Assembly: GCA_041906785.1 (NCBI GenBank)
Contig: JAYRIM010000028.1
Span: forward strand, 121,661 to 185,660
Direction of reading: 5' to 3'
Source of the DNA: Candidatus Levyibacteriota bacterium
Lineage (GTDB): Bacteria; Patescibacteriota; Microgenomatia; Levybacterales; UBA12049
Length of the DNA stretch: 64,000 nt
Positions within the stretch are counted from its first letter, which is position 1. Each line of letters starts with the position of its first letter. Below the pieces are notes generated by a model. It was not told the DNA's origin, did no database searches, and was given only the letters and a program-made list of their open reading frames with translations. Shown here in pieces: positions 5,195 through 51,115 of this stretch. The translations under genes and the position numbers were made by a program.

Positions 5195-6679
5195 TTGGGG
5201 TTAATAGCTATGAGAAAAAGAACACAACATTCTGTTATTGATACTGTAACAGATTTTATAATCAAAAAGAATTTTTTGTATCTAATTCCAGGTATTGTTT
5301 GGATATTTTTTAATCTTTTTTTTCTACCTTTTCAAATTGGAACTGAAGTAATGCATCGACCTTGGCTTGTAATGAGAGGAGAAATTCCTTATAGGGATTT
5401 TGAATGGATAAGAAATCCTCTAGATATCTTTTTACTTGCTAGTTCATTTAAAGTTTTTGGTTTTAATGGTTTAACACTTCGCATTTTTGTTTTTTTGATG
5501 TACACCTCTATTGCAATAACAATTTATTTTTGTGTCAGAAATATATTGAAAAATCAGGCACTTAGAAGTTTCTATATTTATATAATCATGCTTTTTCCTT
5601 TATTTATGAATACACAGATAGGAGAGGCGTTAGTAGGTTTTTTCATTTTTTTGTCGTTCTATATGTTTTGGAAGTTTACAAGTACAAACTATAATAGATT
5701 TCTTTTACTGTCTGGAGTTTTCTCCGGGCTTTCTCTTCTTACGAAACAAACATCAATAGGAATATTAACAGCGATAGGGTTAACATTATTTCTTTTTTAT
5801 TTTAGAAAGTCATTTTTAAAAAAGGTATTTATTTATATATTAGGTGTCTCTTGTATGTATTTAATTTTCATTCTCTATCTTCTCGCGAATAATGCACTGG
5901 ATGATTATTTTTATTACGCTATTTATTTTAACCTTTTCATTTATAGAGAGATTGCTGGGAGATGGGGATTAAATGAAGGAGTAAAAATGTTGATTTTATT
6001 TTTTTCCTTAGTATTTCCTTTTTCCTTTCTAAAATTAAAGAATTTTCCAAGTGTAAATAGATTTTTAATAATCTTGATTATGATCTGTATGATTCCTACT
6101 TTACTACCTTCATTCTGGTCATATAGATTGAATACGGTGCTTCCAATATTTAGCATTATTGCTTCTGTAGTGTTGTCAAAAGTATACGACCTTATCAAAC
6201 AGCGCGATAGATCTATAATTACTACATTCTCTGCTGTGATGATTCTAATCTTTCTCTATATTTTTATTTATTTCTTCAATCAATATAAGTCATTTATTAA
6301 AAACTATGGAGTTAGTTGGTCTCCTTTTATCTATGATTACTCTCAAAAAGAAATAAAAGCTGGCAAGTGGTTAAATCATAACACAGACCCCGGACAAACA
6401 ATATTTAATACAGCAAGTAATATAATTATGGTATTTAGTGAACGAGATCACCATAATAGATATATAGATGGATTACCGTGGGTTTATTATCCATATGACG
6501 AAACTTTTAAAGAAATTACGAAAGTACCTCCGAGGATTGTGATATGGGATAAGAACCTACCTTCTAATTGGCCAGAATTAAAAAATTGGAAGTTTATACC
6601 GTTTCTTAACAAAAACTATATTCTCAAAAAAAGTTTCGGAGAAATAGAAATTTATTTTTTGAAGAAAAATGTTATTTAG
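5195..6679 (+). CDS. polytopic GT-C-type membrane glycosyltransferase (GT39/GT87-like)
   Basis: At least 9 TM helices; WLVMRGEIPYRDFEWIRNPL resembles the GxxPYxDxW loop motif of GT-C mannosyltransferases. Confidence 0.45.
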   Translation: MGLIAMRKRTQHSVIDTVTDFIIKKNFLYLIPGIVWIFFNLFFLPFQIGTEVMHRPWLVMRGEIPYRDFEWIRNPLDIFLLASSFKVFGFNGLTLRIFVFLMYTSIAITIYFCVRNILKNQALRSFYIYIIMLFPLFMNTQIGEALVGFFIFLSFYMFWKFTSTNYNRFLLLSGVFSGLSLLTKQTSIGILTAIGLTLFLFYFRKSFLKKVFIYILGVSCMYLIFILYLLANNALDDYFYYAIYFNLFIYREIAGRWGLNEGVKMLILFFSLVFPFSFLKLKNFPSVNRFLIILIMICMIPTLLPSFWSYRLNTVLPIFSIIASVVLSKVYDLIKQRDRSIITTFSAVMILIFLYIFIYFFNQYKSFIKNYGVSWSPFIYDYSQKEIKAGKWLNHNTDPGQTIFNTASNIIMVFSERDHHNRYIDGLPWVYYPYDETFKEITKVPPRIVIWDKNLPSNWPELKNWKFIPFLNKNYILKKSFGEIEIYFLKKNVI

Positions 6680-42407: not shown

Positions 42408-43202
42408 CTAGGCAACTTTTCTGTAAAACTGAGATAAAGGAATAGGAGATTGATCTTGGGGAACAACAATTGTTCCAGGTATTATGACACGCATACGTAA
42501 ATCTTCACCTCGAAATTCACCATCTGTATCCAATCCACATCCTTCAAGCCATCCATTCGGGGTATAGTATCCAGGAAATCTAATCGGTTTTTTCAAGAAT
42601 TGTTCCTGTTCCTCATGTTCTGCTCCCCTTTTTATAAATAACACACTTTCTTCTAAATTCGGATACAGTTCAGCAAGTCTCTCTCTAACTGCAAGTATAC
42701 TAAAACCTGTATCAAGTACATCATCTAACGTGATAACTGGCCCTGTTGAAGGTCTTAGTCTTTCTAATTCCTGTTGTATAAAACGAGGTTGTCTGTTCGA
42801 TGTCATTTTATCGTCATAACTTGAGACATGGAGTGAATGATAACTAAAATCTTTAATATCTCTTCGTTGAAGCGCAGAGAATAACCAACCTGCGAAAGGT
42901 AAGCCTCCTTCTAACATAATTAAAAATTTTGCTTTCTGCTTTCGAATCTCAGGAGCCATTTTATCTGCAATTTTGTCTACTTCTTCAAGAACTTGTTCAT
43001 GGGTTAATAAAAGTTCATATTCCACACCATTTTCTACATAGTACATACTTTTTTCAGAATGAGGGTTGGGTTGTGTTCCGGCTCCTTCAGGAATATGCAC
43101 CTTTGGTAATCCATTTGGTGTTAATATGCTGCTTTCGCCATTGGGTCGTAAAACAGTTCGATATCTTTCCGGTGTATAGATTATTCCTTCTTTTATTGCC
43201 AT
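42408..43202 (-). CDS. phosphoribosyltransferase-domain protein (HGPRT-like)
   Basis: VITLDDVLDTGFSI matches the PRPP-binding motif (hydrophobic4-DD-x-x-DTG); intermediate GC. Confidence 0.55.
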   Translation of the reverse strand: MAIKEGIIYTPERYRTVLRPNGESSILTPNGLPKVHIPEGAGTQPNPHSEKSMYYVENGVEYELLLTHEQVLEEVDKIADKMAPEIRKQKAKFLIMLEGGLPFAGWLFSALQRRDIKDFSYHSLHVSSYDDKMTSNRQPRFIQQELERLRPSTGPVITLDDVLDTGFSILAVRERLAELYPNLEESVLFIKRGAEHEEQEQFLKKPIRFPGYYTPNGWLEGCGLDTDGEFRGEDLRMRVIIPGTIVVPQDQSPIPLSQFYRKVA

Positions 43203-43228: not shown

Positions 43229-43258
43229 GGGGGGCCCCGATGTGAAATCGGGACCCCC
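43229..43258 (-). terminator. GC-rich hairpin at the left boundary of the high-GC island (candidate terminator of the minus-strand phosphorylase gene)
   Basis: GGGGGCCCCGAT-gtgaa-ATCGGGACCCCC (11-bp stem with one mismatch); an A/T-rich run follows on the minus strand. Confidence 0.4.
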
Positions 43259-43304
43259 TCCGCACCAGTTGACTCGAGTTGAAGGCGTCAGTGAGTGTAG
43301 CTTC

Positions 43305-44351
43305 TTACTGCTGGGACAGCGCTTCCTGGTAGACCTCAGGCCGGTGGATGAGCAACTCCCGGCACGTACAGTTCGTGGGGATAGGAGCTGTCTCAAGCAG
43401 GAGAGCCTCGAATTCCAGAATCCGCCGCGGGAGCTGCTTGACGTAGAGGCTGTCGAGCGTCGTGTTCAGGCCGAACTTGGGGTCGGTTACATCCTGCCCT
43501 TCGCAGTCGTTCGCGACGATGCAATAGTAACCTTCGTCCATACCAAGATGCCTGCACAGGATTGGCGTAACGCTATCACCGTGGAGCATGGCGAAGGGGG
43601 ATCCTTCGCGCTCGGAGATGGTCTGCATCATGTGTCGCCAGACCATAGTTTCGCCTTCGCTCTCGAACGTGCCGCCTGTTGGACTCCGCAAGATTACGCG
43701 GACGTCGCTGGGGCGGTGAACCTTCGGGAAGAACTCGAGGTCCTCTGCCAGGTCTGCCATCCACCCGCTCAGGCTGACGCAGAAGGGATCCTTCATGCGT
43801 GCCAAGTTCGGGAGGACCCCGCCTATCCCAGTGCCGGGGAGATGCCCGGCCATGTTATCGTTCCGATAAAAGGACCATGGGAAGACGATGTCGCCGGGAC
43901 GAATCGCGTCCTGAAGGTTGGCTGGTGAGCGGGGGTCGTTGACCCCATGGGTACCACCGACGAAGAGAACACGAACGCCAGCCTTCCACAGAATCCAGAA
44001 GAGACGCCATTGTCCTTCATGGGGATGCGTGAATCGTTCACCCCGTACCCCGCCGTAGGACGGAATCCAGATGACGTCACGTCCGGATGAGGTGGTGAAC
44101 TGAGTAACCAGCGGGCCGAGGCCGTAAGGCGTGCGCACACGGGCGTTGAAGTTGAGTACCCAGCCCCTCGCCTGGCGGTCGGCGATGACCTGCTCAGGCG
44201 TGACGCCCCAGAGCGGCGAGCCAGTGATGCTCGCCACGGATGCTGACGGTCCATCATAGGCGAAGTTCAGAACAGCGGGATCTTTATATCCTCCCAACAT
44301 CGGTGCCTCCATAGATATGTTGCATGATGCGTGCCTCCACTGTGGAAACAA
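43305..44351 (-). CDS. MTAP/PNP-family nucleoside phosphorylase (high-GC island). True start probably an internal Met (~44312).
   Basis: LFWILWKAGVRVLFVGGTHGVNDP ... IRPGDIVFPWSFY ... CIVANDCEG parallels MTAP ([23 protein letters not shown] ... PGDIVIIDQFIDRT ... ATDYDCW). Confidence 0.45.
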   Translation of the reverse strand: MFPQWRHASCNISMEAPMLGGYKDPAVLNFAYDGPSASVASITGSPLWGVTPEQVIADRQARGWVLNFNARVRTPYGLGPLVTQFTTSSGRDVIWIPSYGGVRGERFTHPHEGQWRLFWILWKAGVRVLFVGGTHGVNDPRSPANLQDAIRPGDIVFPWSFYRNDNMAGHLPGTGIGGVLPNLARMKDPFCVSLSGWMADLAEDLEFFPKVHRPSDVRVILRSPTGGTFESEGETMVWRHMMQTISEREGSPFAMLHGDSVTPILCRHLGMDEGYYCIVANDCEGQDVTDPKFGLNTTLDSLYVKQLPRRILEFEALLLETAPIPTNCTCRELLIHRPEVYQEALSQQ

Positions 44352-45147
44352 CGCGCATGAAACCGAGTGACAGGACTGCGCTGGCGATTGCCAGGTCGAC
44401 GAGCAAGTCCATCCGATACCGTGTAGTGAAGGTGTACAACAACCACCCGAGGCCGCCGCCGGCTGTCAGCCATTCCACGACCACTGCTGAGAGGATTACC
44501 ACACTCGCCGACGTCTTCAAAGCTGCGAAGAGCATCGGCAGCGAATAGTAGATCCGTACATGGCGGAACGTGGCCCATGGCGTGATGCCTGGCAAGGTCT
44601 GGGTATAGTCCATCACGTCCGACTCCACTTGATGCAACCCTGTGAAGAAGTTGATCAAGGTGGGGAAGAACGTTGCCAACGACACGAGCGCGACTCTCAT
44701 CTTCCAGTTAGGGCCGAGGACGAGCATCAGCATCGGGATCAGAACGATAAACGGCACGCTCTTCACCCAGACTGATGTTCGGAGTACGACCGGTTTTAGC
44801 CATGGCACGAATACCATGACGATCGACAGCATGATCGCGATGCTGTTGCCGACCACGAACCCGGATAGAGCATCTAGCAGCGTTAGGCCGATGTTCTGGA
44901 TGATCCAGATACCGTTCGGAATCCGTAATGCCAGATCCTGTTCCCACAGGGCAACGATGACCTTATGGGGAGCAGGGAGTATGAACTGCACATAGTCGGG
45001 GGCGAAGTGAAGGTAGATGTAGACGAGTAGTATCAGCCCCCCGATGTGCAGGATTAGCCCAAGACGTTCGACGAACTGAGTAGCTCCGCGCTTGAGTAAC
45101 GAGAGCCAACCAGTTGGCTGAGGATGATGTTTCAATGCTACTCTCAT
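44284..45147 (-). CDS. ABC transporter permease (NitT/TauT / binding-protein-dependent family)
   Basis: 6 TM helices; conserved EAA-like region ...ALKTSASVVILSAVVVEWL; high GC. Confidence 0.7.
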   Translation of the reverse strand: MRVALKHHPQPTGWLSLLKRGATQFVERLGLILHIGGLILLVYIYLHFAPDYVQFILPAPHKVIVALWEQDLALRIPNGIWIIQNIGLTLLDALSGFVVGNSIAIMLSIVMVFVPWLKPVVLRTSVWVKSVPFIVLIPMLMLVLGPNWKMRVALVSLATFFPTLINFFTGLHQVESDVMDYTQTLPGITPWATFRHVRIYYSLPMLFAALKTSASVVILSAVVVEWLTAGGGLGWLLYTFTTRYRMDLLVDLAIASAVLSLGFMRVVSTVEARIMQHIYGGTDVGRI

Positions 45148-45159
45148 ACGTAGCCCTCC

Positions 45160-46239
45160 TTACTTCAGGTAGTCGAGTGTCATCAGCTCCTGGAGTGTGG
45201 GACGGCGGCGAATCACGTTGTTTGTCATGTAGAAGTCGAGTGCTTCCTCGATCCGCTTGCCGTCCATCCAGAGAAGACCGTTAGACTTGGTAGACTCGCT
45301 AGTCATCATCGGCGCCTGGAGTTGAATACGGCGCCTCAAGATTTGCTCGGTTTCCGAACCACCGAACGCGAGGGCGGTCTTGACGGTGAAGTCCTGGTCG
45401 TTGATCATGCGCTGCATGCCGTTGCGCAGGCCGCGCAAGAAGGCACGCATGACCTGCTTGCCTTCAGGGGTTTCGAGAAACGACCGCTTGGTGAACACGA
45501 TGTCCGCGTAGAACGGTACACCCCACTGGTTATAGCGGAGCGCCTTCCAGGGCAGGCCCTGCTGCTCGAGTGCGAGGGGTTGATTGACAACCCAGTATGA
45601 AGCGAAATCCACCGACTGCGTGAGCAAATCGGCGGGATTTTCGCCTCCGATGCGGACGATGGTGACGTCACGATCATTTACGCCGTTCTTGTGGAGAAGG
45701 GCGATGAGCTGCGCCTCGCTTTGGACACCGACACGCTTGCCGATCAGGTCCTTGGGCGTGAGCTCGCGCGCCCGCTGCTCTGGCGTCAGGTTTTTCTCCA
45801 GAATGACATATCCGAGAGGATGCTCCTGGAGAATCGCACCCGTCATTACGATGGGTACGTTTTCCGCGACCTGCGGCACGATGCCGTCCAGGCTGGCGGT
45901 AACACCGATCTCAGCCTCGCCGGACAGAACGTTGTTAAGAGCGGGAACTTGAGGCCCACCCTCCTTGAACGTGACGGCGAGTCCTTCTTGTTCGAAGTAT
46001 CCGCCTTTGACAGCATTGTACAGGGCGCAGGACTCGCAGTTATGTCGCCAGGGAAGCTGGACGACGAGCGGGCGAAGGGGTTTGGGAGTAGCGGTAGCAG
46101 CAACGGCGACAGTCGGTGCGGCTTTCGGAGCCGCCGTAGTGACGGCCTTAGGTGCGGCCGCCTGAGGAGCGGGCTGCTGGCAGCTGATGAGCAGGCCAGC
46201 AAGGACAAGCAGAACCAAGAGACGTGGAACACGCTGCAT
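45160..46239 (-). CDS. ABC transporter substrate-binding lipoprotein (NMT1/THI5-SsuA-like)
   Basis: MQRVPRLLVLLVLAGLLISC lipobox, then an Ala/Pro-rich linker and an SBP domain. The ORF track extends 25 codons upstream to 46314. Confidence 0.7.
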   Translation of the reverse strand: MQRVPRLLVLLVLAGLLISCQQPAPQAAAPKAVTTAAPKAAPTVAVAATATPKPLRPLVVQLPWRHNCESCALYNAVKGGYFEQEGLAVTFKEGGPQVPALNNVLSGEAEIGVTASLDGIVPQVAENVPIVMTGAILQEHPLGYVILEKNLTPEQRARELTPKDLIGKRVGVQSEAQLIALLHKNGVNDRDVTIVRIGGENPADLLTQSVDFASYWVVNQPLALEQQGLPWKALRYNQWGVPFYADIVFTKRSFLETPEGKQVMRAFLRGLRNGMQRMINDQDFTVKTALAFGGSETEQILRRRIQLQAPMMTSESTKSNGLLWMDGKRIEEALDFYMTNNVIRRRPTLQELMTLDYLK

Positions 46240-46397
46240 GGTAATCCTCCAGTGAACTGATGCTTTGAGTTGGTTGAGACATGGTAGACCACATTCAAAT
46301 AATGTGATCTCCACTGTTCCATACTTGTCTTTCCTAAGGACAAGTGAGAAATCTAAGGAACAGCAGAATGAAAAATGCCAAACATTTTAAAGGTTCC

Positions 46398-46470
46398 AGG
46401 AGAGACAAAAGAGCCAAATGGGCCAAAGGTTTAGTACCCTTCTGTCTCTTTTGGCTCCTCGGTCCCATTT
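46398..46470. repeat. hairpin repeat family 2 (AATGGGCCAAAGG core), copy 1
   Basis: GAGACAAAAGAGCCAAATGGGCCAAAGGTTTAGTACCCTTCTGTCTCTTTTGGCTCC: an inverted repeat forming a long stem. Confidence 0.55.
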
Positions 46471-46647
46471 TTCCCTTATTATCCCTTGACATTCTTTATA
46501 CTGCTGCTCCTTGATAAGTTGAAAAAATAAATAGCCTTCAACTTGTCAAGGTGCGAAAAATAGTTATTTCTGCAAGCGACGTCTTTTCGCGATTGAAAAT
46601 ATGTTGCTTGGAAAAAGAAAAAAAATATTTCTGTCTCTAAACGAAAA

Positions 46648-46672
46648 AACTCCTCGCGTGTGAGGAGTTTTC
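46648..46672. terminator. bidirectional intrinsic-terminator-like hairpin in the gene-free spacer
   Basis: AACTCCTC-gcgtgt-GAGGAGTT, followed by TTTTC on the + strand and preceded by the complement of TTTTTTCG on the - strand. Confidence 0.45.
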
Positions 46673-46859
46673 AGAATATTGACAGCAAGTAATTATTAAT
46701 AGAAGACAGGGCTCGATGAGATTATTAAAAAGTAAATAAAGCGGTTTAGTAATGACGTTTCTCAACAGCATCACTACTATAGTATTATGTGATTTTTATC
46801 ACATGTCAATAGGGAATTGTCTAGTTTTTGTCTAGTTTTTGTTTGAAAATTTGAAGCAT

Positions 46860-46887
46860 TTGACAAACAAGTGTAAGTTGTTACAAT
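46860..46887 (+). promoter_or_regulatory. near-consensus sigma70 promoter (TTGACA-16-TACAAT) abutting the start of the 46899 gene, giving a leaderless or near-leaderless mRNA
   Basis: TTGACAaacaagtgtaagttgtTACAAT; the predicted TSS is ~5 nt before the ATG at 46899, leaving no room for an SD. Confidence 0.45.
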
Positions 46888-46898
46888 GTAACTAATTG

Positions 46899-47411
46899 AT
46901 GAATAATCAAAAGTTATTTATTGGTTTTGGCATATTGTTAGTTGTACTCCTCCTTGGTGGTGGTTTATTTATTATGTCGTCCGGTAAAAAATCTAGCCAA
47001 TCTCCTACACCTTCTGCTGAGCAATTCATGATAGAAAAACTTTCTCCAGAAGATATTGGTCTAGAATTAATTCCAAAAACGCTTCCAAATGATGGAAAAC
47101 AGATAAAAGTTATAGTGAGTAAAGTTGCTGATATAAAACATTTAGCATATGAAATTACATACGAAGCAGATATTCCGAAAAGTGAATTGCCTCCAGGTGA
47201 GACAGAAGGACGTGTTGAGCGTGGTGTAGGAAATGATGATGTATCGATCAATTCATCTGATAAAAAATACGAATCGAAGTTTTTAGATTTCGGATCTGAG
47301 TCAAAAGGTGTGGTTCGATATGACACAGGAGTAACTGAAGCGAAGATCGTGATGAAAGTCACGAAACGGGACGGAAAAGTCTATCAGGTTGAAGATTCAG
47401 TGAAATTCTAA
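46899..47411 (+). CDS. secreted/membrane-anchored hypothetical protein
   Basis: N-terminal TM/signal (LFIGFGILLVVLLLGGGLFI); ATG at 46899 preferred over TTG at 46896. Confidence 0.4.
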   Translation: MNNQKLFIGFGILLVVLLLGGGLFIMSSGKKSSQSPTPSAEQFMIEKLSPEDIGLELIPKTLPNDGKQIKVIVSKVADIKHLAYEITYEADIPKSELPPGETEGRVERGVGNDDVSINSSDKKYESKFLDFGSESKGVVRYDTGVTEAKIVMKVTKRDGKVYQVEDSVKF

Positions 47412-48184: not shown

Positions 48185-49057
48185 ATGGATACTTATCATA
48201 CACCTGTCCTTTTACAAGAAACAATTGAATTTTTAGATGTTCAGTCAGGAAAACGATACATTGATGCAACATTAGGTGGTGGTGGACATACTGAAGCTAT
48301 ACTGAAGCTTGGTGGTACTGTGTTGGGAATAGATACGGATGAAGAGGCTGTTACACACGTTCAAGAGAAACTAAAAATTAAAAACGAAAAAATAAAAATT
48401 ACTAAGGGGAATTTTAGGAATATTGACGAAATAGCAAGAGTGAATGGGTTTGAAAATGTAGATGGCATACTGTTTGACCTGGGTGTTTCAAGTCATCAAT
48501 TCGATAGCGCTGAACGGGGTTTTAGCTTTTTAAAAAAAGGACCATTAGATATGCGTATGGATCGAAGGCTTGGTGTAACTGCGAAAGATTTACTTGCGGT
48601 GCTATCTAAAACAGATCTGGCGAAATTATTTATAGAATACGGAGAAGAGCGATTCGCACATAAAATAGCTGATGCTATCGTAAAACGAAGAGAAATTAAG
48701 CCTATTGAAAGCACAGAAGAGTTAGAAGCATTAATTCGAATGGTAGTTCCTAAGAAGGAAGTCATCCATCCAGGAACACGGGTATTTCAGGCCTTACGAA
48801 TAGCAGTAAACACAGAACTTGAAAATATAGAAGAGGCATTGCCCAAAGCGATCGAATTAGTACACGTAAAAGGCAGAATTGCGGTTATCAGCTTTCATTC
48901 ATTGGAAGATAGAATTGTAAAACGTACATTTGCGGATTGGGAAGAAAATAACATTGGAAATATACTTACGAAGAAACCTGTGATACCAAGCGAAAAGGAG
49001 ATTGCAGAAAATCCTAGAAGCAGAAGCGCAAAATTAAGAGTTTTTGAAAAAATATGA
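48185..49057 (+). CDS. rsmH: 16S rRNA (cytosine1402-N4)-methyltransferase RsmH
   Basis: YIDATLGGGGHTEAIL ... FDLGVSSHQFD motifs. Confidence 0.9.
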   Translation: MDTYHTPVLLQETIEFLDVQSGKRYIDATLGGGGHTEAILKLGGTVLGIDTDEEAVTHVQEKLKIKNEKIKITKGNFRNIDEIARVNGFENVDGILFDLGVSSHQFDSAERGFSFLKKGPLDMRMDRRLGVTAKDLLAVLSKTDLAKLFIEYGEERFAHKIADAIVKRREIKPIESTEELEALIRMVVPKKEVIHPGTRVFQALRIAVNTELENIEEALPKAIELVHVKGRIAVISFHSLEDRIVKRTFADWEENNIGNILTKKPVIPSEKEIAENPRSRSAKLRVFEKI

Positions 49058-49329
49058 AAAAAAGATTTGTCGTCATTTTATTATCTATCACAATACTCCT
49101 TTCCTGTATCCATGTTGTGATATCTAATATGCTTTCGACTGCTGGGGTAGAACTCGATGAAATACAAGAAAAATTAACCCAATATAAAAAAGAAAATTTA
49201 TTACTTCATGAAGATATTTTAGAACATTCTTCTCTGTATTCTATTGCCTCTGCATCAGCGACAATGGGATTTGTCAGTGAAAAATCGCATGTTTATATTT
49301 CCGCGCCTTTACCACTCGCTAAAAGATAA
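49054..49329 (+). CDS. ftsL: FtsL-like small bitopic cell-division protein
   Basis: 91 aa with one TM plus a coiled region, located between rsmH and ftsI. Confidence 0.45.
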   Translation: MKKRFVVILLSITILLSCIHVVISNMLSTAGVELDEIQEKLTQYKKENLLLHEDILEHSSLYSIASASATMGFVSEKSHVYISAPLPLAKR

Positions 49330-49337
49330 TTTTTGAT

Positions 49338-49422
49338 AAGGAGTCAAAAGAGACAAAGGAGACAAATGGGCCAAAGGAATCTAACTTCTGTCCCTTCTGG
49401 TTCTTTGGTCTCTTTTGGTACC
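49338..49422. repeat. hairpin repeat family 2, copy 2 (between the ftsL-like gene and ftsI, overlapping the annotated ftsI 5' end)
   Basis: AGTCAAAAGAGACAAAGGAGACAAATGGGCCAAAGGAATCTAACTTCTGTCCCTTCTGGTTCTTTGGTCTCTTTTGG. Confidence 0.55.
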
Positions 49423-51115
49423 TTTTATTATGACTTTTCGTTATAGAAGCTTATTGGGATTTTTCGCTTGTATTTTCTTCATTATATTTGCGCGGTTATT
49501 CTATTGGCAGGTTGTTCGTGCACAAGAATTAGCAGAACTTGGAGAGATGCAATATGGCCAATTTATAAAACAGATTCCTAAACGAGGAGAAATACGCACG
49601 AGTGATAACTTTCCTATTGCCGCGAATAAAATAAATTACCTTGTTTTTCTTAATCCGAAAACAGTCCCAGATGATGAGAAAGAAAAAATTTCTCCATTAC
49701 TCGCGCCTCTACTCGAAGTAGATCCAGCAAGTATTAGTGCGAAACTTATGATGAACAGGTATTGGGTAGCCTTAAAACCAAATGTGGAACATTCGGTAAA
49801 AGAACAGATTGAAAAGCTCAAGTTACAAGGAATAGGATTCGAAGAACAAACAGTTCGGTTTTATCCAGAGGCTTCATTAGCAGCCAAATTAATAGGATTT
49901 GTCGGGAAAGATGATGAAGGAAATAATAAAGGGTATTTCGGATTAGAAGGATATTATGATCTACAGCTTTCAGGAAAACCTGGTTTGGCTATGCAGATAA
50001 AGGACGCGTTGGGAAGACCGATATTGGCCAAAATGAATAACAGTTCTGCAAAAGTGGACGGTAGAAATATTATTCTCTATGTAGACCGGAGTGTGCAGTT
50101 TATCCTTGAAGAGGAATTACGGAAAGGCCTAGAAAAATATGGCGCTCAAGGTGCTATGGGTGTCATTATGGACCCGAAAACCGGTGGCATTTTAGGAATG
50201 AGTGCTTTTCCGTCTTTCGACCAGCGAAATTTCCAAGAATATTCAAGTGATTTATATTTAAATCCTATCATTTCCAACGCTTATGAGCCCGGATCGACCT
50301 TTAAGCCACTTGTCATGGCTGCAGGAATAGATAGTGGCGTTGTAAAACCTGAAACCCAATGTCCTATTTGTGATAAGCCTGTTGAAATAGGGGGGTACAC
50401 TATAAAAACCTGGAATAATGAATACCAACCCGGTATTACAATGGCAAACGTCATCCGAGATTCTGATAATACAGGAATGGTTTATGTCTCACAAAAACTG
50501 GGATTAAAGAAAATGTATTCTTATTTAGAAAAATATGGTATAGGGTCTTTAACAGGAGTAGATCTTCAAGGCGAGATGTCCCCTGATTTACGTTCCATAG
50601 ATTCTTGGTACCCTATAGATGTTGCGACTGCAAGTTTCGGACAGGGAATATCTGTTACAGCGATTGAATTAGTAAGTGCTTTTGCAAGCTTAGCAAATGA
50701 TGGAAAACGTATGCAGCCGCATGTAGTCTCTAGTGTCGAGACCCCGGAAGGGGAAATTATTCCAATAGCACCGAAAGAAGTGAATCAAACAGTTTCGCCT
50801 ACGACGACGAAAATAATGCGGGAAATTTTAGTTAATGCTGTGAAAAAAGGCGAGGCTAAATGGGCTGCTCCGAAGGGATACAGAATCGCGGGGAAAACTG
50901 GTACTGCACAGATTCCTATTGAAGGTCATTATGATTCAGAAAAAACCATTGCGTCTTTCATAGGATATGCTCCAGCAGATGATCCGAAGTTTGTAATGTT
51001 GATAGTCTATGATCGTCCGACAAGTTCTATTTATGGATCGGAGACTGCAGCGCCGACGTTTTTTACTATTGCCACGAAATTATTAGCTTACTATAAAATT
51101 CCGCCATCAGAATAA
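49415..51115 (+). CDS. ftsI: peptidoglycan D,D-transpeptidase FtsI (class B PBP)
   Basis: STFKPLVMAAG (SxxK), SDN, KTGTAQ motifs; N-terminal TM. True start possibly ATG ~49430. Confidence 0.85.
   Translation: MVPFIMTFRYRSLLGFFACIFFIIFARLFYWQVVRAQELAELGEMQYGQFIKQIPKRGEIRTSDNFPIAANKINYLVFLNPKTVPDDEKEKISPLLAPLLEVDPASISAKLMMNRYWVALKPNVEHSVKEQIEKLKLQGIGFEEQTVRFYPEASLAAKLIGFVGKDDEGNNKGYFGLEGYYDLQLSGKPGLAMQIKDALGRPILAKMNNSSAKVDGRNIILYVDRSVQFILEEELRKGLEKYGAQGAMGVIMDPKTGGILGMSAFPSFDQRNFQEYSSDLYLNPIISNAYEPGSTFKPLVMAAGIDSGVVKPETQCPICDKPVEIGGYTIKTWNNEYQPGITMANVIRDSDNTGMVYVSQKLGLKKMYSYLEKYGIGSLTGVDLQGEMSPDLRSIDSWYPIDVATASFGQGISVTAIELVSAFASLANDGKRMQPHVVSSVETPEGEIIPIAPKEVNQTVSPTTTKIMREILVNAVKKGEAKWAAPKGYRIAGKTGTAQIPIEGHYDSEKTIASFIGYAPADDPKFVMLIVYDRPTSSIYGSETAAPTFFTIATKLLAYYKIPPSE

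Follow-up and report, generated by a model that had tools for sequence, protein, structure and literature searches.

A conserved, hairpin-rich spacer in a Candidatus Levyibacteriota genome as a candidate control region of a purine salvage operon

Attenuation leaders and riboswitch-type 5′ untranslated regions (UTRs) of salvage operons, among them those of purine-riboswitch transporters and the PyrR-controlled pyr leaders, are the described systems closest to the locus analysed here: a spacer of 659 bp (positions 46240-46898) in a 64,000-nt stretch of contig JAYRIM010000028.1 from a Candidatus Levyibacteriota bacterium, the whole of which we call the window. The likeness lies in a long, structured and conserved leader with an intrinsic terminator, in adjacent genes of the phosphoribosyltransferase (PRTase) family, and in an anti-Shine-Dalgarno-like UCCUUAG near the ribosome-binding site (RBS). 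Unlike the known leaders, the spacer has no match in Rfam, its terminator lies upstream of most of the conserved structure and about 400 nt before the start codon, and it holds a 22-nt motif complementary to the far end of the operon. Members of the Candidate Phyla Radiation (CPR)/Patescibacteria are presumed to rely on nucleobases and nucleosides that they scavenge, and to our knowledge almost nothing is known about how they regulate the uptake of these compounds.

Other parts of the locus recall other systems. Processing stems for RNase III bracket the 16S and 23S rRNAs. Base pairing between the 5′ UTR and the 3′ UTR has been described for the icaR mRNA of Staphylococcus aureus (PMC3868564). 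As in both cases, the ends of the transcript predicted here are complementary over about 20 bp and kilobases apart, with a G/C-rich element at the 3′ end; in contrast to them, the predicted helix encloses an operon of several genes whose content is exchangeable, belongs to a family that is found in different lineages, and leaves the Shine-Dalgarno sequence uncovered. Mobile insertion cassettes, non-autonomous transposons and integron cassettes offer a different comparison, with genes of foreign composition framed by inverted repeats and content that varies at one locus, and the CTTCAAC/GTTGAAG elements of the motifs resemble the R″/R′ boxes of integron attC sites. The locus differs from mobile insertion cassettes and integrons in having no target-site duplication, no nearby transposase or integrase gene and no compact attC, and in having conserved parts beyond the repeat. 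Bidirectional terminators between divergent or convergent genes share with it a GC-rich 6-bp stem between an A-run and a U-run, but here the U-tract is clearly stronger on one strand, and the hexaloop and its position are conserved within a leader module across unrelated contexts.

We propose, with a probability of about 0.5, that the spacer is a control region, promoter and leader together, for an operon on the minus strand, lying back to back with a plus-strand promoter of leaderless type. The operon whose 5′ end faces the spacer encodes a substrate-binding protein (SBP), a permease, an MTAP/PNP-like protein and an HGPRT-like PRTase and, judged by these predicted functions, is a purine salvage/uptake operon; the SBP is an NMT1/THI5-type lipoprotein, and the 348-residue protein is a distant relative of the MTAP/PNP phosphorylases. 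The strand-informative evidence, which comprises a promoter-like site, a 5′ stem-loop, the U-tract of the terminator and the G·U pairs of a long helix (Table 1), points to the minus strand. A previous inspection of the same DNA, which we refer to as the sequence-only reading, had described the spacer as a regulatory hub, and the features found support that description: two divergent and conserved promoter-like sites, a direct repeat, a terminator, and helices with compensatory changes. Three points go beyond it: the minus-strand polarity, the connection with a transporter operon, and an inverted partner of the 22-nt motif on the distant side of the GC-rich block.

Conservation was assessed on related contigs reached from homologs of the 170-residue protein encoded on the plus-strand side of the spacer, and by motif scans and SBP homologs. 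One of these, L002 (the same contig as L029, CAZEJU010000013.1), matches the layout of the window, with a PRTase gene, GC-rich transporter genes, a spacer of 638 bp, a gene for a 172-residue protein, and mraZ. The 170-residue protein is 69% identical in amino acid sequence between the two, and nucleotide identity is 71% for its gene, 74% for mraZ and 80% for the PRTase gene. Within the spacer, identity reaches 90% at 46780-46741, 80-93% at 46642-46507 and 93% at 46366-46328, against only 28-45% in three other stretches that include a repeated palindrome. Blocks of the spacer are thus more conserved than the flanking genes, which argues that the spacer is under selection and is not a decayed scar. 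Gene order in L002 and its backbone of about 35% GC also match the CPR-like lineage of the window.

The elements of the predicted leader follow one another along the minus strand. The promoter-like site recurs in L002 as TTGACA-N18-AATACT, with the hexamers conserved and the sequence between them not. The 5′ stem-loop folds in both genomes, and in the window its two non-Watson-Crick pairs are G·U on the minus strand and A·C on the plus strand. After a variable stretch comes the terminator, whose arms, AAAACTCCTC (46646-46655) and GAGGAGTTTT (46662-46671), are 100% complementary and which combines, on the minus strand, the G+C-rich stem, 3-8 nt loop and U-tract of an intrinsic terminator. The sequence-only reading had called it bidirectional and placed it at 46648-46672; the terminator holds up, and the better U-tract is on the minus strand (UUUUUU, against UUUU on the plus strand; U6-U8 in the window and L002). 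Its homologs in L002, L035 and L039 are 100% paired, with two pairs changed on both sides (CUUCUC/GAGAAG in L002, CCUCUC/GAGAGG in L035 and L039) and a hexaloop of the form A-N-N-Y-G-C. A terminator scanner calls the L002 and L035 homologs and misses the window copy, probably through greedy stem extension that absorbs the U-run. Since homologous terminators precede cassettes in other genomes, the terminator belongs to an operon leader module, where it would act as an attenuator or else mark the 3′ end of a ~130-nt RNA. The argument that divergent genes need no terminator here, and hence that a separate gene must be present, is incomplete in view of the same finding; in L039 the terminator follows a co-directional upstream PRTase gene. 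The proposed independent transcript is plausible: a conserved promoter-like site on the minus strand, about 110 nt upstream of the terminator, would give an RNA of that size.

Beyond the terminator, the minus strand continues through a conserved U-rich stretch and a lineage-specific hairpin into a long hairpin. Across six leaders the base helix of the latter is 90.3% paired, with three compensatory pairs and a covariation score of 0.339 against 0.221 in shuffles (2 of 500 shuffles reach it), and all eight non-Watson-Crick cells that still pair are G·U in the gene-sense orientation only. This G·U pattern assigns the long helix, together with the 5′ stem-loop, to a minus-strand RNA. A small hairpin follows, about 70 nt before GGAGG and AUG; in L002 its stem has changed to CUCGUC/GACGAG around an identical loop, a compensatory change, and analogous hairpins occur at the matching position in L005, L035, L036 and L039. 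The genes downstream of the leader are salvage transporters in every case, so that, in four to six hand-aligned sequences, structure backed by covariation lies in the 5′ UTR of functionally related genes.

Tied to this leader is a pair of inverted motifs. The 5′ motif, identical in L002, has no further copy in the 64-kb window at up to three mismatches, and variants of it lie upstream of salvage-transporter genes in L005, L035, L036, L039 and, at two sites, in L013/L016/L019, three near-identical metagenomic contigs of another low-GC genome. Its partner, the 3′ motif, lies 3.2 kb away. The duplex predicted for the two in the window comprises about 20 bp, interrupted by an internal loop and a bulge, and has a free energy of -34.7 kcal/mol (z = -7.8; none of 500 shuffles as good). 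The 3′ motif is followed at once by a hairpin on a G5/C5 base, for which folding in the window gives -34.7 kcal/mol (z = -4.5). Matching trailers, with both the 3′ motif and this hairpin, are present in L002, L019 (both blocks), L035 and L036, where the GGGGG...CCCCC base is conserved and the apex variable; the 3′ junction is 87% identical to that of L002 over the aligned positions. In all, the motif pair and the G5/C5 hairpin frame six transporter cassettes in four lineages, the window included, and the other genomes, which are low in GC, probably also belong to the Patescibacteria/CPR. Across the cases, duplex energies lie between -26.6 and -34.7 kcal/mol and z-scores between -4.3 and -7.8, and none of 500 shuffles reaches them. 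The motifs at the two ends of the cassettes co-vary, as do the flanking bases (GAAGGC/GCCTTC, GGCTTTA/TAAAGCC, GGTT/AACC, GAAGACTAT/ATAGTCTTC), and in the two subfamilies of motif, GAAGGC/GCCTTC and GAAGAC/GTCTTC, partners are mostly preferred within their own subfamily.

The genes within this frame have evidently been exchanged. The window has a GC content of about 33%, with a sharp block of 55-65% at 43250-46260 that holds the cassette. Its SBP, permease and 348-residue protein are only 32%, 29% and 38% identical to those of L002, as against 83% for the PRTase, yet all three are 49-67% identical to the proteins of the L035 and L036 cassettes, which adjoin signal peptidase/parB/ftsW or mreB. 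The block between leader and trailer was thus exchanged in one lineage: the framed genes were swapped between the window and a close relative, and the leader and the trailer with its PRTase gene stayed. On its 5′ side the swap has its breakpoint somewhere from 46322 to 46240, which is some 210-290 nt inside the inverted repeat; on its 3′ side the breakpoint coincides with the 3′ motif. The closest SBP homologs found (49-52% identity) are all on low-GC contigs with the leader motif and adjacent PRTase genes. Such like-for-like replacement of transporters between conserved flanks bears on how reduced genomes acquire uptake genes.

Table 1. Features of the spacer and of the operon it faces (positions in the window)
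Feature	Position	Strand	Remarks
Promoter of the 170-residue protein gene, TTGACA-N16-TACAAT with TG extension	46860..46887	plus	11/12 matches; ends 11 nt before ATG 46899
Tandem direct repeat, TTGTCTAGTTT x2, period 11 bp, between the divergent -35 boxes	46817..46838	unstranded	
Promoter-like site, TTGACA-N17-AATACT	46781..46809	minus	10/12 matches
5′-terminal stem-loop of the predicted minus-strand transcript	46743..46773	minus	within the 90%-identical block 46741-46786
Intrinsic terminator, CUCCUC-ACACGC-GAGGAG + U6	46640..46671	minus	plus-strand tail U4 only
Fifth hairpin, window/L002 lineage only	46573..46610	unstranded	base CAAGC/GCUUG conserved, apex not
5′ motif, 22 nt, CGCACCTTGACAAGTTGAAGGC (CGCACCUUGACAAGUUGAAGGC), left arm of the cassette-bracketing inverted repeat	46534..46555 (46555->46534)	minus	
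Local 15-bp hairpin: most of the 5′ motif and a nearby partial inverted copy	46509..46551	unstranded	loop 13 nt (17 nt in L002)
Long hairpin, 12-bp base AAGGAGCAGCAG (46512->46501) / CUGCUGUUCCUU (46366->46355), variable apex	46355..46512	minus	
"Family-2" imperfect palindrome, repeated ~85-nt element, apex of the long hairpin	46385..46485	unstranded	28-45% identity to L002
Small hairpin, ACUUGUC-CUUAGGAAA-GACAAGU, preceded by UCCUUAG (anti-Shine-Dalgarno-like)	46323..46345	minus	~80 nt before start codon
Shine-Dalgarno GGAGG (46250->46246) and ATG (46239) of the NMT1-type substrate-binding lipoprotein gene	46237..46250	minus	
GC-rich three-gene cassette: NMT1-type SBP, ABC permease, MTAP/PNP-like 348-residue protein	43305..46239	minus	
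3′ motif GCCTTCAACTCGAGTCAACTGGTGCG, imperfect inverted partner of the 5′ motif	43261..43286 (43286->43261)	minus	just past the last GC-rich gene
G5/C5-based hairpin, GGGGGUCCCGA-uuucaca-UCGGGGCCCCC	43229..43258	minus	adjoins the 3′ motif; PRTase ATG (43202) 27 nt further on
Low-GC HGPRT-like PRTase gene, last on the strand, conserved backbone	42408..43202	minus	83% amino acid identity to L002

If the spacer is a minus-strand leader, the following sequence of events can be envisaged. Transcription would start near 46774, from the minus-strand TTGACA-N17-AATACT site, and most transcripts would end at the terminator (46671->46640), yielding an RNA of about 130 nt; those that read through would carry a structured leader of about 400 nt into the operon. 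Such attenuation would answer to some signal, possibly a purine-related one. Once transcribed, the 3′ motif could pair with the 5′ motif, closing the cassette mRNA next to the G5/C5 hairpin, and this pairing may set the processing or stability of the mRNA and uncouple the message for the downstream PRTase. The UCCUUAG elements and the hairpin before the RBS may tune translation initiation, and leader and trailer, conserved across lineages, could double as portable homology arms for cassette replacement. We regard as a tentative extension of this proposal that leader (terminator, 22-nt motif and long hairpin) and trailer (inverted motif and G5/C5 hairpin) form, in low-GC, CPR-like bacteria, a portable "cassette frame" within which GC-rich purine-salvage transporter genes of various types are exchanged, the motifs either pairing in the mRNA for closing or processing, or serving as recombination sites of an undescribed cassette system that is not linked to an integrase. 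If true, the motif pair would be a rare case of end-to-end RNA pairing around a whole operon or a new type of cassette boundary. Structured operon leaders are a known kind of element; what is new at this locus would be the motif pair that brackets the operon and the exchange of cassettes on such a leader. The spacer would in any case offer a conserved, experimentally tractable regulatory module before salvage transporters that is without a match in Rfam.

Several observations weigh against reading the spacer as a minus-strand leader and its motif as one arm of an RNA helix. Thermodynamic folding does not decide the strand, both strands folding far better than shuffles (46240-46780: z = -5.6 on the minus and -7.2 on the plus strand, 0 shuffles as good), and the two hairpins specific to the window and L002, at 46509-46551 and 46573-46610, have their G·U pairs on the plus strand. 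A terminator placed before the bulk of the conserved structure is unusual for riboswitches, and with no -10 box or second promoter found downstream of it the operon would hinge on read-through. Helix alignments were registered by hand from four to six sequences, and the numbers drawn from them are indicative only. For the motif pair, complementarity of the 5′ and 3′ copies is equally expected of DNA inverted repeats, and the mismatches (one A·C and one G·U) are uninformative; in L005 the 5′ motif occurs together with the long hairpin and a GC hairpin but lacks a 3′ partner; and a search of the 64-kb window for the signature of an RNase III gene found none, an uninformative result.

Taken as DNA, the motifs would be the recombination sites, or the terminal inverted repeats, of a cassette that is not autonomous and has the GC-rich genes as cargo; it could resemble a mobile insertion cassette that is moved in trans or represent a new system of cassette capture, and the spacer would contain its left end. 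Imperfect inverted repeats of about 22-26 bp with co-varying ends surround the six GC-rich cassettes at different loci, as is expected of terminal inverted repeats; cassette content differs between close relatives at one locus, an indel of 80 nt directly adjoins the outer side of the motif when L013 and L019 are compared with L016, and CTTCAAC/GTTGAAG match the integron R″/R′ boxes at 6 of 7 positions. Yet the outer flanks, ...CTATTTTT|CGCACC and GGTGCG|GAGGGG, contain no target-site duplication, no transposase was found, the XerC/D-like tyrosine recombinase of L019 is without a homolog in the window or at the other loci, and the independent assemblies include neither an inversion nor an empty-site variant. 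An integron attC site would be a compact element of 57-141 bp, with R″ (RYYYAAC) and R′ (GTTRRRY) boxes and an intI gene; here one box stands at either end of the cassette, with its cognate partner across the genes and not across a junction, the pairing brackets the cassette with no compact attC at its 3′ end, and no tyrosine recombinase homolog was found in the window. In L019A, moreover, pairing is confined to the inner 13 bp and does not extend to the outer ends, the opposite of what transposon ends show. Different loci have a homologous terminator beyond the 5′ repeat, and the swap has its 5′ breakpoint well inside that repeat and not at its boundary; a conserved terminator outside and a breakpoint inside fit RNA or regulatory modules better than transposon ends, and we consider a DNA-level element unlikely, though it stays in contention. 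That the spacer is a non-functional remnant, the decayed scar of an island insertion with selfish palindromic repeats, as the sequence-only reading had allowed, is far harder to sustain. The apex at 46385-46485 is indeed a repeated palindromic element that is not conserved, and the two other divergent stretches are only 33-45% identical to L002, but blocks that exceed the identity of coding genes, compensatory changes in the base helix and the terminator, and a matching architecture in distant genomes make this explanation barely credible.

Among RNA- and protein-based alternatives, an independent trans-acting small RNA is compatible with the leader proposed here: the ~130-nt minus-strand RNA, reaching from near 46774 to near 46640, would be a product in its own right. 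A promoter-like site (10/12) and a terminator conserved in two species (the window and L002), a 5′ stem-loop block that is 90% identical, and the succession of 5′ hairpin and terminator that is typical of small RNAs suggest as much. Against it stand its presence in two species only, L035 and L039 carrying a different domain before the homologous terminator, folding z-scores of only -2.2 and -1.8, and the lack of an Rfam match; the RNA is also collinear with the operon, for which a leader is the simpler reading, and we therefore doubt that it is the main product of the spacer. Somewhat less probable still is that the motif, its inverted copies and the 11-bp repeats are transcription-factor sites of a purine-salvage regulon, with the hairpins as by-products of palindromic operators. 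The motif stands before three unrelated types of transporter (NMT1-ABC, ECF and BMP-ABC), about 46 to 300 nt from the start codon and always with PRTase genes adjacent; it contains a TTGACA/TTAACA-like hexamer, and the direct repeats keep their 11-bp period. An operator would not be expected to have a second site past the last gene with co-varying flanks (GGCTTTA/TAAAGCC, GACTAT/ATAGTC), nor a loop between the local arms that shifts from 13 to 17 nt; no -10 box was seen on inspection at a fixed distance, and exceptions that are G·U only in the long helix point to RNA. A non-coding transcript of the plus strand that spans the hairpins at 46509-46551 and 46573-46610 and stops at the terminator (46646-46675) would account for the strongest fold z-score (-7.15 against shuffled sequence, for 46480-46690 on the plus strand), for the plus-strand G·U pairs of those hairpins, and for the partly bidirectional character of the terminator. 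It is improbable nonetheless: no conserved plus-strand promoter was found, TTGACA at 46486 being absent from L002, the U-tract on this strand is only 4 U in the window and is AUUUCGUAUU in L002, and both hairpins are missing from L035, L036 and L039.

On the plus-strand side, the promoter that the sequence-only reading had placed before ATG 46899 (TTGACA-16-TACAAT) is present, and promoter prediction on both strands gives it and the minus-strand site as two divergent conserved promoter-like sites. L002 has TTGACA-16-TAAAAT at an equal distance, and the same hexamers occur in L004 and L005, so that hexamers at a spacing of 16-18 nt are conserved in relatives as in a sigma-70-type promoter. Throughout the family of the 170-residue protein gene (window 46860-46899; L002 5963-6001; L004 ~5965-6001; L005 ~5967-6001), TTGACA-N16-TAnAAT lies 8-11 nt before the start codon without a Shine-Dalgarno sequence, an arrangement which implies that the predicted mRNA is leaderless or nearly so. 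The direct repeat, previously placed near 46818-46841, has in L002 a counterpart at ~5919-5940, TTGTCTGCTTT/TTGTCAGCTTC, in the matching place and with the matching period and a conserved TTGTC core; it is a candidate regulator binding site, and its spacing would be typical of OmpR/PhoB-type response regulators. The gene for the 170-residue membrane-anchored protein is followed by mraZ, rsmH and ftsI.

All of the features listed in the sequence-only reading (hairpins, direct repeat and promoter) were found in the sequence. The hairpin CTTGTC-tttcctaag-GACAAG has its arms at 46324-46329 and 46339-46344, the family-2 hairpin (46398-46470) at 46402-46422 and 46437-46457 with 81% complementarity, and the third hairpin (~46511-46550) at 46506-46523 and 46537-46554 with 89%. 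A second family-2 copy, about 75% identical, lies at 49335-49425 between a 91-codon open reading frame (ORF; 49054-49329) and a PBP/ftsI-type gene, and family-2 is evidently a small repeated palindromic element of this genome. As had been reported, 46315-46898 contains no ORF of at least 60 codons, the largest having 56, 52 and 45. The gene-free stretch begins earlier than had been given, at 46240 instead of 46315, since the SBP gene most likely starts at ATG 46239. Compared with L002, the ORFs of the spacer have retained neither length nor frame, save one of 27 codons on the plus strand (46752-46835); as the conserved part of this ORF shows two non-synonymous and no third-position changes over 12 codons, the constraint lies on nucleotides and not on a protein. 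The junctions are reproduced exactly in an independent Logan assembly.

Searches for known families gave little. A scan of the window with Infernal and Rfam 15 returned no match at the gathering threshold, as did scans of L002, L005, L013, L016 and L019; at E<=10, 46150-47000 gave only sub-threshold matches of eukaryotic microRNA or small nucleolar RNA type, and neither gathering nor E-value thresholds yielded anything usable in the window and nine loci. No match was found to the families tested, which included the purine, NMT1/xanthine, PRPP, preQ1, TPP and PyrR-site families, and the spacer belongs to no Rfam family. A scan for tRNA and transfer-messenger RNA found none, a search of the genome contig collection found no homolog of the 170-residue protein, and a full-text search for the motif sequence and the literature on CPR cassettes and riboswitches held nothing relevant. 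Scans of metagenome and genome contigs with CGCACNTTNACAAGTTGAAG gave mostly chance matches in coding regions, the relevant ones being L013/L016/L019 and L029 only, and a viral contig scan with the motif pattern gave two chance matches. As a sigma-70 promoter, with TTGACA/TTAACA or TTGAAG as -35 or a TATTTA-like hexamer as -10, the motif was ruled out by inspection, there being no consistent partner hexamer across eight instances.

The framed genes vary in kind. In L013/L016/L019 the motif stands before a nucleoside-type ABC ATPase-permease-permease block and, with one mismatch to the search pattern, before a GC-rich BMP-family SBP gene; in two of these three contigs the 5′ motif is bordered, exactly at its outer edge, by an insertion of 80 nt with CCGCC...GGCGG at its ends (L013 1240-1317; L019 13713-13642), which L016 is without. 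L005 has an ECF-type transporter of which only the S-component gene is GC-rich. The cassettes of the window (43305-46239), L035 (425-3274) and L036 (296-3100) have SBP and permease genes and no ABC ATPase gene, unlike that of L002, which includes one. No outside donor that would account for the GC-rich composition of the cassette is visible among the SBP homologs found. In relatives without a salvage cassette, glyS lies directly upstream of the 170-residue protein homolog (L006) or de novo purine genes do (L004 1-5910 and L042 1-5979, with purK/E/C/M in both and purB also in L042); one genomic position thus holds a salvage cassette or de novo purine genes in different relatives.

Two further leaders differ upstream of the cassette. 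L035 (~125-250) and L039 (~1235-1335) share another domain before the homologous terminator, AAUACCUCAA...CCGGAGGAAA...AAGAAMCAGGGYU, in which one stem changes from AGCC/GGCU to AACC/GGUU and which may be a separate candidate aptamer or attenuator. In L037, the interval between an APRT-like PRTase gene and the SBP gene (1444-1540) has a sub-threshold PyrR-site match (33 bits against a threshold of 54, E = 0.3), and the 5′ motif is present only in a short form, CGCACGTTGAAAAG, which precedes the start codon by about 10 nt.

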